NCBI GenBank assembly: GCA_024742735.1
Contig: JANSXV010000006.1
Location: 11,213-75,212, forward strand
Direction: 5' to 3'
From: Alphaproteobacteria bacterium
GTDB lineage: Bacteria; Pseudomonadota; Alphaproteobacteria; Caulobacterales; Maricaulaceae
DNA: 64,000 nt
Made by a program: the position numbers and the translations under genes
Notes under the pieces: generated by a model
Databases searched by the model: none
Told to the model about the DNA's origin: nothing
What the model saw: the letters and a program-made list of their open reading frames with translations, nothing else
Shown: piece by piece, positions 58,816-64,000 of the stretch
How the letters are laid out: the number at the start of each line of letters is the position of its first letter
Position numbering within the stretch: the stretch's first letter is position 1

Positions 58816-60522
58816 GTGCTCGCCTCCCTCACCATCAAGGACATTGTCCTCATCGACCGCGAGGAGCTGGTCTTCTCCGGCGGTCTGTCGGCGCTGACCG
58901 GCGAGACCGGGGCGGGCAAGTCGATCCTGCTGGGCGCGCTAGGCCTGGCGTGCGGTGACCGGGGCGGCAAGGGGCTTGTGCGCCAGGGCGCCGATCAGGC
59001 CATGGCCGTCGCCGTGTTCGAGCCCGCGCCGGACCATCCCGCCTACGCCATCCTTGAAGAGGCCGGCCTTGCAGCGGAGCCGGGCGAGCCGATCATTCTT
59101 CGCCGCACCCTGTCCGCTGACGGCCGCTCACGCGCCCATGTGAACGACCAGCCCGCCAGCGTGGGACTTCTAGCCCAGCTCGGCGATGTGCTGGTGGAGA
59201 TCCACGGCCAGCATGACGGGCGCGGCCTGCTTGACCCCAAGACCCATCGCAGCCTGCTGGACGCTTTTGCCGGCGCCTCGAAGGAGCGCGCCGCCGTCGC
59301 CAGCGCCTGGGAGGCGCTAAGCACGGCGCGCAAGCGGATGGATGAGCTGGCGAAGTCCCGCGACAAGGCGGCGAGCGAGGAAGCCTATCTACGCGGTGCG
59401 GTCGAAGCGCTGGGTGCACTCGATCCAAAGCCGGACGAGGAAGCAGCGCTCGCAGAAGAACGCAAATTCCTCCAGCAGGCCGAAGCCGCGCTGACCGAGC
59501 TGCAGACCGCCATGTCCGCCGTCGCGGGCGGAGAGGGGCTGTCGACTCGCCTGAACACCGCCCTCAGGGGCCTGGAGCGTGTGCGTGGAGCGCTCGGCGC
59601 CGGCGAGGCGGGCGAAGACGCCGGTGACGCCGCCGCGGCCCGGGCGAGCGTAGAGCGCGCCGCCGGGGCGCTCGACCGCGCCCTCATCGAGTTCAACGAG
59701 GCTGAAGACGCGCTGGCCGAAGCCGCCCAGCGTTTCGAGGTCGAGCCGGGGCGGCTCGACAGGGTTGAAGAGCGCCTGTTCGCCCTGCGCGGCGAGGCGC
59801 GAAAGCATTCTGTGGAGGTCGACGCCCTCCCGGCCCTGCGCGAGGATCTGGCGGGCCGGCTCGATCTGATCGAGCACGCCGATGACCGCCTGAAGGAGGC
59901 CGAAAGCGCGCTGAAAGCCGCCGAAACCGACTATGCGCGCGCCGCCGAGGCGCTGACCAAAGCCCGCAGAAGCGCTGCCGAAAAGCTCGCCGCCGCGGTC
60001 ATCGCGGAGCTTGAGCCGCTGAAAATGGACAAGGCCCGCTTCCGCGTCGCCGTAGACCCCGATGAGACCCGTCCCGGCGCCAAGGGTTGGGACCGCGTGG
60101 CCTTCGAAGTCGCGACCAATCCCGGCGCGCCGTTCGGGGCGCTGGACAAGATCGCTTCGGGCGGTGAGCTGTCGCGCTTCGCGCTGGCGCTGAAGGTCTG
60201 CCTGGTGGGCGGAGGCGGAAAGGTCATGGTGTTCGACGAGGTCGACCAGGGCGTGGGCGGCGCGGTCGCCGACGCGGTGGGCCAGCGCCTGGCGAAGCTG
60301 GCCGAGACCGGTCAGGCCCTGGTCGTCACGCACTCGCCCCAGGTCGCCGCCCGCGCCGCGCTGCACTTCCGCATCGAGAAGGCGTCCGACGGCGAGGGCG
60401 TGCGCACCGCGGTGCGCGAGCTGGGCCCCATGGAGCGCCGCGAAGAGATCGCGCGAATGCTCTCCGGAGCGGAAGTGACGGATGCGGCGCGCGCGGCGGC
60501 CGATCAGCTGATGGCGAGCTGA
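58816..60522 (+). CDS. recN: DNA repair protein RecN
   Basis: TGETGAGKS, ASGGELSRFALA, FDEVDQG, VTHSPQVA, EIARML. Confidence 0.96.
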   Translation: MLASLTIKDIVLIDREELVFSGGLSALTGETGAGKSILLGALGLACGDRGGKGLVRQGADQAMAVAVFEPAPDHPAYAILEEAGLAAEPGEPIILRRTLSADGRSRAHVNDQPASVGLLAQLGDVLVEIHGQHDGRGLLDPKTHRSLLDAFAGASKERAAVASAWEALSTARKRMDELAKSRDKAASEEAYLRGAVEALGALDPKPDEEAALAEERKFLQQAEAALTELQTAMSAVAGGEGLSTRLNTALRGLERVRGALGAGEAGEDAGDAAAARASVERAAGALDRALIEFNEAEDALAEAAQRFEVEPGRLDRVEERLFALRGEARKHSVEVDALPALREDLAGRLDLIEHADDRLKEAESALKAAETDYARAAEALTKARRSAAEKLAAAVIAELEPLKMDKARFRVAVDPDETRPGAKGWDRVAFEVATNPGAPFGALDKIASGGELSRFALALKVCLVGGGGKVMVFDEVDQGVGGAVADAVGQRLAKLAETGQALVVTHSPQVAARAALHFRIEKASDGEGVRTAVRELGPMERREEIARMLSGAEVTDAARAAADQLMAS

Positions 60523-60563
60523 AGATCTTTTGGATTGGAAATCTTGCTTTCTATCTGAAAGCT

Positions 60564-61439
60564 TTAGCCTTTTAGAATCAGCAGTAGTGCTTTAGGAAAC
60601 TGGTTGTCCACATGTGTCCGATAGGACTGGTCGCTCTGCTCCGCGCTTCCGAAAAATATTTCTTCATAGTATTCAAGTTTGAAACCACACTGTATAACAA
60701 GGTCAAACACACTACCTAGCGGTAGATGGTGATACGGAATTGAAAAATCGCCTCGCGAAAATTCATATCTTCCTTGCTCCGAACTTTTGTATGTCTCGAT
60801 GTTCTCGAACTTTCTTGAATTGGTTCGGCTAAGATAGAAGTCAGACAAATCCTTTATAACTAGAAATGGATGCGTTATTATCAACGCTAGACGACTTTTT
60901 TCAGACTCTTTGATGCGCGTTGATTTTGAGCCGCGCCTGCAGAGGGTTTTTATACCCGACAGGTAGGACCTTTGGTTTTTCAATTCGTTAAGTACAAATA
61001 TTGACAGCCCGAGATCGAATGTACTTGTCAAGCTACGCTCCCAGCCTGCCTGATCGAAGTTCTTTCGAATAAAGCTAGTCGAATTATCAGCGTAAGCTGA
61101 CTCAGCTGCTTCTAAAAAGTATTGGTTTACATCGAACCCAACATACTTCGCTGCCCCTAAACCGCGACAGAACGGTACAGCGTTCCCCACTCCGCAGCCA
61201 AAATCGTAAATAACGCCGCCCCGTGCATATGGAGCTAACCTATCTTGAATGACAGGAAATATGCTTTCGTTACGGATCTTATCAGGAGAAACTCCATACT
61301 CTGCTAGCCAATACTCCGCATAGGCTTTATCGCGTTCGTCATCAATTTGGCTGCGCTGCATACGGGTCGTTCCGCTGACCTCTTCAATGTCACGCTGAGA
61401 ACTTATTAAATAAGGGCGATTTTTCCGATCAGATACCAT
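60564..61439 (-). CDS. Class I SAM-dependent methyltransferase
   Basis: Motif I IYDFGCGVG, acidic beta2 GFDVN, FDLGLSIFVLNE, THPF, YHHLPL...GFKLEYYEE. Confidence 0.88.
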   Translation of the reverse strand: MVSDRKNRPYLISSQRDIEEVSGTTRMQRSQIDDERDKAYAEYWLAEYGVSPDKIRNESIFPVIQDRLAPYARGGVIYDFGCGVGNAVPFCRGLGAAKYVGFDVNQYFLEAAESAYADNSTSFIRKNFDQAGWERSLTSTFDLGLSIFVLNELKNQRSYLSGIKTLCRRGSKSTRIKESEKSRLALIITHPFLVIKDLSDFYLSRTNSRKFENIETYKSSEQGRYEFSRGDFSIPYHHLPLGSVFDLVIQCGFKLEYYEEIFFGSAEQSDQSYRTHVDNQFPKALLLILKG

Positions 61440-61440
61440 C

Positions 61441-62145
61441 TTATTTTGATATTTCCCGATGTGCTACCCAAGCCAAGTATAGCTTCCACTTTGACAGACT
61501 TGCAAAGAACTTTTTGTCGGCGATAGCTCTTTTTACCCAATCCCATCGAGTGATCCGTTGCAATTGTAGGGTGTCTTTCTTGATCTCCGAATGGACGGCT
61601 CCGTTGCCATCAAGCACGCCTACAAACCAGCCGGTCGCGGCCGTCTTTGCCATGTTAGGAAATACATACTTCGCCAAGCCCGTTCTATTTTCAGAGCGGT
61701 TAGTAAAGGATGAGCTATAGTTAAATGTTAAAATTACTTCATGATTCTCGTCGAAATGGAGAGAGTCTGATTTGAAAGTCGCATAGACAGAGGGCGCTGC
61801 AAAAGTGCCATCTGGAAATTCAATGGTTTCCCCGCTTATAAAATATGAGTTAGTGAGGAATCGACGCCTTATATCAATCATTGTGACGTAGCTCTTGTCG
61901 TCTCGCTGTATTTTCTCAATCCAAGTGCCTTCAGATTGAGCGGCCTTTGTATAGATGCACCTTAGAATGCGAACTCGCTTGAAAGCTTCGAAAGTGACCG
62001 TTGGGACAAACGCTAAGATGACAGCTCCGATCGCCAGTTGCTCACGCTGGGTCAGATTGTCGGGGTCAAACCCAAGCAGTGCACCGACTACGCGTGTCGC
62101 TGCGTCTAGTAGGCCCCAAAGCAGGTCAATCAAATTTGAAATCAT
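61441..62145 (-). CDS. TM + beta-strand-rich protein, Cap15/S-2TMbeta-like
   Basis: N-terminal hydrophobic helices, GTW motif at the first strand, about eight alternating-pattern strands, TGWF and LQLQR at the barrel end; stop is 1 nt from the MTase start. Confidence 0.6.
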   Translation of the reverse strand: MISNLIDLLWGLLDAATRVVGALLGFDPDNLTQREQLAIGAVILAFVPTVTFEAFKRVRILRCIYTKAAQSEGTWIEKIQRDDKSYVTMIDIRRRFLTNSYFISGETIEFPDGTFAAPSVYATFKSDSLHFDENHEVILTFNYSSSFTNRSENRTGLAKYVFPNMAKTAATGWFVGVLDGNGAVHSEIKKDTLQLQRITRWDWVKRAIADKKFFASLSKWKLYLAWVAHREISK

Positions 62146-62320
62146 GTATTCTTCGTATGCCCTATAACTGCCATCCTAAGCTTAGACTTGTCGGGTAAGA
62201 GCGCAAGGAGGGAAACGGGCCTCGTGCGATGCCGCCGGGCGGAAGCATTTAAGGGCGAAATCCGGCACTTGATCTCGGTCCGTGCCGAACGAACCGGAAA
62301 GATGTTTGTTTCAGTTCTAA

Positions 62321-64000
<1,680 letters not shown>

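Follow-up and report, generated by a model that had tools for sequence, protein, structure and literature searches.

A horizontally acquired gene pair that couples a predicted membrane-anchored barrel protein to a SAM-dependent methyltransferase

We analyzed a 64,000-nucleotide (nt) stretch of DNA from an alphaproteobacterium of the family Maricaulaceae (contig JANSXV010000006.1, positions 11,213 to 75,212), which we will refer to as the window. Between recN and ligA, the window contains a 1.6-kilobase cassette of two genes. Gene 1 encodes a protein of 234 amino acids (aa) with predicted membrane helices and a predicted beta-barrel, and gene 2 encodes a 291-aa methyltransferase that depends on S-adenosylmethionine (SAM). 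Gene 1 is directly followed by the same family of methyltransferase in all nine members of its family, down to 24-31% identity. This strict pairing is the strongest result of our analysis. The initial annotation, which was made from the sequence alone, proposed that the pairing was undescribed, and this still seems to be the case: Pfam, NCBIfam, PHROGs, and PADLOC 2.0 contain no entry for the gene 1 family or for the pairing, and full-text searches of the literature for related systems found no description of the pair. The cassette may be a conflict module, with the methyltransferase as the regulator of a membrane effector.

Gene 1 and the methyltransferase are found together

An exhaustive phmmer search with gene 1 against 1.84 billion representative proteins gave eight hits. 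Seven of these are real relatives (31-47% identity), while the eighth (P0016, 1163 aa) is spurious, as it is a repetitive and apparently eukaryotic-type sequence. A profile built from nine gene 1 members did not find any new members. Among the species genomes of GTDB, the search found only Henriciella algicola, and the pair is present in 2 of ~186,000 species genomes. A pattern scan did not find the pair in JGI metagenome contigs or in IMG/VR, and neither protein was found in PLSDB (72,556 plasmids) or INPHARED (50,697 phage records).

We counted the pairing for every gene 1 relative whose DNA could be fetched. Outside of the window, the fetched DNA contains the pair at these loci:

L001: pair in Henriciella algicola
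L002, with short contigs L003 and L004: pair in a metagenome-assembled genome
L005, L008, L009, L033, L034/L035, L036/L037: pair in seven further metagenome contigs

The initial annotation treated the two genes as a unit, and their co-conservation (9/9) is consistent with this. The two genes overlap or are 1-16 nt apart. Conversely, the methyltransferase family has about ten known members, and nine of them follow gene 1. The pairwise identities of the two proteins are correlated (r = 0.76, 28 pairs from eight loci), and gene 1 evolves faster (mean identity of 37%, vs. 45% for the methyltransferase).

The only methyltransferase relative without gene 1 is P0009 (311 aa, 43% identity; L006 6001-7470). 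Instead, 31 nt past the gene for P0009, there is a P-loop kinase of the chloramphenicol phosphotransferase family (Pfam CPT, E = 5e-30, with weak similarity to Zeta_toxin). The surrounding island encodes IS256-type and IS91-type transposases, an integrase, an HD_3 protein, and two trypsin-like proteins, one of which is fused to an NS-type endonuclease and matches PADLOC's "nacht" model. L006 may contain a second and different two-gene module that is built on the same methyltransferase family. Having a kinase in place of gene 1 resembles the swapping of effectors in defense systems.

The pair is inserted at varied sites: between recN and ligA (in the window), after uvrB, after secY-adk, beside a UvrD-like helicase, between DUF29 and Uma2 genes, or in a conjugative element. 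For all eight loci that we compared (the window, L001, L002, L005, L008, L009, L034, and L036), the pair has a G+C content (GC) of 0.39-0.52 in a host of 0.58-0.69. Identity between copies is only 24-50%, and we did not find any copy with an AT-rich host. AT-rich copies that occur only in GC-rich hosts suggest either an unsampled low-GC reservoir or selection for low GC.

In L002 (1-12810), which comes from the metagenome-assembled genome of an alphaproteobacterium, the pair lies in a Trb-type conjugative element. The order of the genes is ArdC-like, a ParB_N protein (565 aa), AbiEi, AbiEii, a 59-aa open reading frame (ORF), the pair, TraG, and then TrbB/C/VirB3/VirB4. Only traG-trbB has matches in plasmids of Bradyrhizobium, Paracoccus, and Rhodopseudomonas, and these are distant (~71-74% identity).

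Three copies lie directly downstream of uvrB and in the same orientation (L001 7627-8001, L008 522-579, and L009 255-535). Their hosts are related alphaproteobacteria with UvrB C-termini that are 61-72% identical, while the gene 1 proteins are only 42-48% identical and do not resemble one another more than they resemble the copy in the window. More broadly, DNA repair genes adjoin 5 of the 8 loci (recN/ligA, uvrB three times, and the UvrD-like helicase). This could be due to chance, a preferred target, or a functional link, and the number of independent cases is too small to say more because the three uvrB cases are from related hosts. The UvrD-like helicase in L005 (2802-5233) is convergent with the pair and is split into ORFs of 574 and 229 aa on a long-read contig with 3.5x coverage, so the split is probably an assembly frameshift. 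This helicase matches PADLOC's models for GajB and for the DRT-associated helicase, as any UvrD would. Also, a P-loop gene upstream of the pair in L036/L037 was considered as a third component, but it is the housekeeping adenylate kinase that follows secY.

The cassette was acquired into a variable slot

The initial annotation described a low-GC insert between recN and ligA with exactly two minus-strand genes that are 1 nt apart, and the GC profile, the flanking genes, and the ORFs all agree with this. GC is 0.42-0.48 across 60600-62200, vs. 0.62-0.73 in the flanks; the pair itself is at 0.45, with 0.68 and 0.65 on its two sides. (Put another way, the genome around the 45% GC islet is at 65-68%.) The low-GC stretch starts right past the stop codon of recN (60522) and ends near 62200. 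Between the stop codon of gene 1 and the start codon of gene 2, the coding strand reads TAA-G-ATG. The features of the cassette are:

60523-62200, minus strand: AT-rich horizontally acquired islet (~45% GC) with a two-gene operon (GC profile, absence from relatives)
61441-62145, minus strand: gene 1, 234-aa orphan protein (ORF, AlphaFold2 model)
62068-62124, minus strand: hydrophobic helix 1 of gene 1, residues 8-26 (Kyte-Doolittle hydropathy, charge counts, AlphaFold2)
61981-62037, minus strand: hydrophobic helix 2, residues 37-55, with a strongly basic segment (KRVRILR) after it (hydropathy, charge counts)
61552-61941, minus strand: predicted beta-barrel domain, residues 69-198, an eight-strand up-and-down meander (AlphaFold2, Foldseek, column conservation)
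61447-61548, minus strand: predicted C-terminal helical pair, residues 200-233 (AlphaFold2, alignments)
60564-61439, minus strand: gene 2, 291-aa class I SAM-dependent methyltransferase (Pfam, AlphaFold2, Foldseek)
61182-61205, minus strand: motif I of the methyltransferase, DFGCGVGN, residues 79-86, the SAM-binding loop (alignment, sequence)
61224-61355, minus strand: N-terminal lid helices of the methyltransferase, residues 29-72 (alignment, AlphaFold2)
62146-62200, minus strand: AT-rich leader 5' of gene 1, where the promoter and ribosome-binding region presumably lie (sequence)
60523-60563, no strand: AT-rich spacer of 41 nt that separates the stop codons of the convergent recN and methyltransferase genes and forms the islet's left edge (sequence)

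Both genes are real, as their reading frames stay open in relatives at 24-60% identity. We did not find any other credible ORF in the insert: two ORFs on the plus strand (68 and 70 aa) lie antisense to gene 1 and are mere shadows of it.

Several lines of evidence indicate that the cassette is a strain-specific acquisition. Gene 1 is single-copy in its genome and is absent from all 60 of the relatives that we compared, of which 26 are from the same genus. We fetched the corresponding region from six relatives, and recN and ligA are adjacent in five of them, with a gap of 50-640 base pairs (bp). The gap is ~50 bp in L026; in L024 it contains ~300 bp of REP-like GC-rich palindromes; and in L021 (270-737), L023, and L025 it contains a GC-rich gene for a GNAT acetyltransferase of ~155 aa (Pfam Acetyltransf_7, E = 2e-8). 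The sixth relative (G020) also has the GNAT gene (L022 252-710), which makes four genomes of this genus that carry it, but the GNAT gene is followed by unrelated ORFs of 282 and 413 aa instead of by ligA. In the window, the slot contains the cassette and no GNAT gene. In other words, the gap between recN and ligA is a variable slot in this genus. Because of this variability and the absence of gene 1 from relatives, we conclude that the cassette was acquired into the slot, as a two-gene unit, which fits the insert described in the initial annotation. We did not find direct or inverted repeats at the ends of the islet, and the ends are not conserved among the eight loci. We also found no integrase or transposase next to the pair, which lies outside of any integron array.

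The setting of the cassette in the window is a housekeeping one, as the remainder of the window consists of the division and cell wall (dcw) gene cluster, followed by lpxC and bamD. recN (58816-60522, plus strand) ends 41 nt from the stop codon of gene 2, and we assigned a terminator-like hairpin at 60504-60522 to the end of recN. Based on alignment with relatives, we moved the start of ligA from ATG 62321, as in the list of ORFs, to ATG 62426. Two long ORFs upstream of and overlapping the start of ligA (62142-62660 on the minus strand and 62188-62370 on the plus strand) are unsupported shadow frames of GC-rich DNA. In a scan for promoters and terminators, sites were no more frequent than in shuffled sequence, and the leader of gene 1 did not contain a consensus promoter. 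As for SOS control, no GAAC-N7-GAAC box was found near the pair; two boxes elsewhere in the window match the chance expectation.

Gene 1 is predicted to form an eight-strand barrel on a membrane hairpin

By sequence comparison, gene 1 belongs to no described family: it has no family match in Pfam, NCBIfam, PHROG, or PADLOC, and no sequence-profile match to any solved structure. Our AlphaFold2 model of gene 1 has a predicted local distance difference test score (pLDDT) of 73.4 and a predicted template modeling score (pTM) of 0.59. The model has two N-terminal helices (residues 2-23 and 33-65), then a barrel, and then two C-terminal helices (200-209 and 220-233). The barrel spans residues 69-198, with eight long strands (69-81, 84-95, 101-109, 119-126, 136-145, 154-163, 169-178, and 184-198) and a short one (130-132), which are joined by short hairpins. 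Confidence in the barrel is moderate, with pLDDT of 52-62 at residues 131-160 and of 57-61 at 171-190. The initial annotation had predicted N-terminal hydrophobic helices and about eight strands. All eight of the segments that it listed match strands in the model, and two hydrophobic windows are present in all nine members. It did not describe the two C-terminal helices, which are the most confident part of the model (pLDDT of 85-94) and contain the invariant residues W203 and W220.

Across the nine members, the mean hydropathy (Kyte-Doolittle, 19 residues) is 1.4-2.0 for helix 1 and 1.1-2.7 for helix 2. Every member has 1-3 acidic residues in helix 1, and a plain membrane anchor would not usually have these. 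Between the two helices, the loop has a net acidic character, and the 16-19 residues past helix 2 include 3-6 lysines or arginines vs. 0-2 aspartates or glutamates (in 9/9 members). By the positive-inside rule, the acidic loop and the basic segment place the barrel in the cytoplasm. This location also fits because a SAM-dependent partner could not act in any other compartment. The predicted topology is thus a hairpin of two helices, with both ends inside, and a cytoplasmic barrel.

Conserved positions alternate along the strands of the barrel. All nine members have G73-x-W75 in strand 1 and R/K197 in the last strand. A G-x-W motif in strand 1 combined with a basic residue in the final strand is presumably the structural signature of the calycins. 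In the six closest members, polar residues on the strands of the barrel (E72, E77, R94, N99, E106, N142, and N153) are invariant as well.

The best matches to the model in the PDB are lipocalin-like: the Bacteroides proteins 4gzv, 4i95, and 4iab; 8t0b; and VtrC of the VtrA/VtrC bile-salt sensor (5kew). These matches have E = 2e-3 to 2e-2 and template modeling (TM) scores of 0.41-0.53 on the target, with just 7-14% sequence identity. Like the model of gene 1, they are eight-strand up-and-down barrels, and VtrC, too, is anchored to the membrane and acts along with a partner. However, these proteins are either secreted, lipoproteins, or located in the periplasm, and they have at most one membrane helix, while gene 1 has the predicted two-helix hairpin, which along with its cytoplasmic SAM-dependent partner is why we place its barrel in the cytoplasm. 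Also, unlike gene 1, none of them is paired with a methyltransferase.

The predicted layout of gene 1, but not its sequence, resembles Cap15

The initial annotation described gene 1 as Cap15-like. Cap15 and related S-2TMbeta effectors, including OptE and PanE, are membrane proteins whose known partners are all nucleotide cyclases (CD-NTase, mCpol, or mDAC). We took their features from PMC12657218, PMC12657230, and bioRxiv 10.64898/2026.08.10.743972, and we collected seven bona fide members of the Cap15 family with PF18153 from Pfam. As a check on sensitivity, a profile of five of these finds the structure of Cap15 (7N34) at E = 1e-15.

None of the nine gene 1 members matches Cap15_CD_rec from Pfam or any model from PADLOC, even at E ≤ 10. 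Aligning the gene 1 family to the Cap15 family with hhalign gave a probability of 0.3% and a score of 16, while nulls from a run with the seven Cap15-family proteins scored 17 (reversed) and 9-20 (column-shuffled). Because the score is in the range of these nulls, there is no sequence signal for homology to Cap15. Apparent parallels of motif (GTW at strand 1, or Y-x-Y-x-N vs. TFNY) have no statistical support.

The structural comparison is mixed. When we searched the viral protein models of BFVD, the best match to gene 1 was a protein that is annotated as a S-2TMbeta effector (E = 1.2e-3, probability of 1.0, full length, 237 columns), but the similarity is weak, with TM scores of only 0.39-0.41. 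In contrast, 7N34 is present in the PDB library and is not among the top 50 Foldseek hits. The architecture in the initial annotation (a hairpin and an eight-strand barrel, next to a methyltransferase) has held up; the link to the Cap15 family, with no profile match, has not. Given the results from Pfam, PADLOC, hhalign (with both types of nulls), and Foldseek, homology of gene 1 to Cap15 is not supported. Sequence comparisons do not support membership of gene 1 in the Cap15/S-2TMbeta family, and the likeness seems to be architectural only: the model has the layout of a S-2TMbeta effector, and its barrel appears to be of the same general calycin-like kind.

The layouts agree in the order and sizes of the domains. 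In Cap15, OptE, and PanE, as predicted for gene 1, two N-terminal hydrophobic helices lead directly into an eight-strand barrel of ~130 aa that is predicted to be cytoplasmic. Both kinds of proteins are encoded in tight two-gene operons with a cytoplasmic enzyme, and both are mobile and sporadic. There are also differences. The Cap15-family proteins that we compared (193-232 aa) have no counterpart of the conserved C-terminal helical pair, and the order of the operon is reversed, with the effector-like gene first in the cassette. The enzyme is a SAM-dependent methyltransferase at 9/9 loci instead of a nucleotide cyclase. The initial annotation had noticed that there is no cyclase at the locus, and in fact SMODS (PF18144) and Cap15_CD_rec are both absent from the entire genome.

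Gene 2 is probably an active methyltransferase

The initial annotation identified gene 2 as a class I SAM-dependent methyltransferase with an N-terminal extension, and both parts of this are correct. Gene 2 is above the gathering thresholds of Pfam for Methyltransf_11, _12, _25, _31, and _23. For example, it scores 34.8 bits for Methyltransf_12 (cutoff of 30) and 34.5 bits for Methyltransf_11 (cutoff of 21.2). In seven relatives, D79, G81, G83, and G85 of motif I (DFGCGxGN), the acidic residue after strand 2 (D103), and N151-E152-L153 are all invariant. Since these catalytic motifs are intact, gene 2 is probably active.

The AlphaFold2 model of gene 2 (pLDDT of 74, pTM of 0.75) is most similar to the structural-genomics methyltransferases 3bkw (Foldseek E = 2e-13) and 3e8s. 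Next are the toxoflavin N-methyltransferase ToxA, mRNA-cap guanine-N7 methyltransferases, XrdM, the peptide N-methyltransferase CypM, and MitM, and the tRNA enzymes CmoM and METTL6 are also among the neighbors. Overall, the top 50 are methyltransferases that act on small molecules, peptides, RNA caps, or tRNAs, and the predicted fold of gene 2 is closest to the small-molecule and RNA methyltransferases. We also considered DNA methylation, as in restriction-modification, BREX, or MADS systems, and rejected it: no DNA methyltransferase from Pfam or NCBIfam and no such fold matched. The sole match of gene 2 in PADLOC is to mad2 (E = 0.019), across the generic SAM-binding part.

The N-terminal extension comprises residues 1-28, which are predicted to be disordered (pLDDT of 34 for 1-26), and a lid at residues 29-72, with predicted helices at 31-48 and 54-72. 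The lid has the signature ERDKxYAEYWLxEYGxxPDxIR, with R29, D37, Y40, A41, Y43, W44, E47, Y48, G49, P52, D53, and R56 invariant. A helical lid is a normal part of small-molecule methyltransferases. Enzymes of the Methyltransf_11/12/25 type, such as 3bkw, 3e8s, ToxA (5je1), and the cap guanine-N7 methyltransferase 1ri1, share the Rossmann-like fold, motif I, the acidic residue after strand 2, and an aromatic-rich N-terminal helical lid. However, gene 2 is just 11-19% identical to these four, and its family is set apart by a distinct invariant lid motif as well as by an insertion at residues 205-240.

What might the cassette do?

Our preferred explanation, which we hold tentatively and put at a little short of an even chance, is that the cassette is a self-contained mobile conflict module, where a membrane effector is under the control of the methyltransferase. 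The most likely outcome would be defense against phages by abortive infection, or else addiction of the cell to the element. We favor this explanation because of the layout of gene 1, its S-2TMbeta match in BFVD, the strict pairing and co-divergence of the two genes, the mobility of the pair (low GC, varied sites, and sporadic presence), the cargo slot next to AbiE in L002, the apparently swapped partner in L006, and the published precedent of the 2TM-beta effectors. In Panoptes and PanDA, the products of the enzymes hold 2TM-beta effectors off (PMC12657218, PMC12657230, bioRxiv 10.64898/2026.08.10.743972). As long as the constitutively active enzyme supplies its product, the membrane effector stays silent, and it is triggered once the product is lost (PMC12657230). 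The likeness of the cassette to Panoptes (mCpol and 2TMbeta) or to Hailong is one of concept only, namely that an enzyme makes the "antitoxin," and the cassette would use methyl transfer instead of nucleotide polymerization.

In such a module, gene 1 would insert into the inner membrane as a two-helix hairpin, with the calycin-type ligand-binding barrel and the C-terminal helical pair in the cytoplasm. Translational coupling would ensure that gene 2 is made in a fixed proportion. Gene 2 would act as a SAM-dependent methyltransferase of the small-molecule or RNA type, and might make or remove a methylated ligand that the barrel reads, or else methylate the barrel protein itself. The state of methylation would then set whether the hairpins oligomerize and breach the membrane, as cyclic nucleotides do for Cap15, OptE, and PanE. 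We infer the membrane toxicity, the ligand, the direction of control, and the anti-phage role.

Several observations weigh against a conflict module. No PADLOC model matches gene 1, and helix 1 is only marginally hydrophobic, with acidic residues. Of the five loci with useful flanks, four are among housekeeping genes and not in defense islands. A known defense gene (AbiE) adjoins just one of these five, which cover four of about six distinct contexts, and the initial annotation's claim of an anti-phage module has no direct support. With nine members in all, in 2 of ~186,000 species genomes, the family is too small for statistics on enrichment. Finally, the lipocalin-like matches and the folds of small-molecule tailoring methyltransferases would fit a metabolic role equally well.

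The main rival, which is possible if on balance unlikely, is that the cassette does have such a role: the membrane-tethered calycin might bind a hydrophobic or aromatic compound and present it to the coupled methyltransferase, with no role in toxicity or immunity. The outcome could be detoxification, resistance, or tailoring of a lipid or metabolite. Besides the lipocalin-like folds, which include a protein that binds bile salts, the invariant G-x-W and R/K of the barrel fit this role, as does the similarity of gene 2 to the small-molecule enzymes ToxA, XrdM, and MitM and to CypM. The partner of P0009 also fits, as it is a true CPT-family kinase. But known methyltransferases for resistance or tailoring do not need an obligatory membrane partner, while the pairing here is 9/9. 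At no locus do biosynthetic genes, a transporter, or a regulator accompany the pair, and the family is extremely rare, with no members in the plasmid or phage collections that we searched. A two-helix hairpin with a barrel in the cytoplasm is how the S-2TMbeta effectors are laid out, and bacterial lipocalins are not known to have this layout.

Another explanation, which we consider improbable, is that gene 2 methylates proteins and is dedicated to a single substrate, the gene 1 protein, and that the two have a role at the membrane unrelated to conflict, such as signaling or adaptation of the envelope. Translational coupling, the strict 1:1 co-occurrence, and the co-divergence of the two proteins would all be expected. 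So might the presence of CypM, which methylates peptides, among the fold neighbors, and the many invariant polar residues on the barrel strands of the six closest members. On the other hand, sporadic AT-rich mobile islets are unusual for housekeeping functions of the membrane, and the fold neighbors of gene 2 are not specifically protein methyltransferases.

Returning to the conflict module, one specific version of it is a guard on the SAM pool, which we view as a long shot. The methyltransferase would continuously use SAM to methylate the barrel protein or its ligand and so keep the hairpin monomeric. Phages can carry a SAM lyase or SAMase to escape from restriction or BREX; destruction of SAM by such an enzyme would stop the methylation, free the effector, and abort the infection. 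This would be inverse signaling, like that of Panoptes and Hailong, but via methyl transfer. Gene 1 would then be a new family of effectors, which either converged on Cap15 or diverged from it past recognition.

Lastly, we give hardly any credence to the idea that gene 1 is an extremely diverged true S-2TMbeta/Cap15 receptor, with its cyclic nucleotide made elsewhere in the cell and the methyltransferase as a mere neighbor: the top match in BFVD and the shared order and sizes of the domains point that way, but the genome has no match to SMODS or Cap15_CD_rec, the profile-profile score is in the range of the nulls, 7N34 is outside the top 50 in the PDB, and a methyltransferase that is present at 9/9 loci is no accidental neighbor.

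Implications

If the cassette is not a conflict module and has a metabolic role, then it would still be an undescribed arrangement, in which a small-molecule methyltransferase has an obligatory membrane-tethered partner of the calycin type. If it is a conflict module, then methyltransferases would join the nucleotide cyclases as controllers of two-helix beta-barrel membrane effectors, and a protein family with no entry in the databases would be defined. The cassette is small, self-contained, and easy to test in laboratory E. coli. More broadly, a conflict module of this kind would mean that ligand-gated membrane suicide extends beyond nucleotide second messengers.

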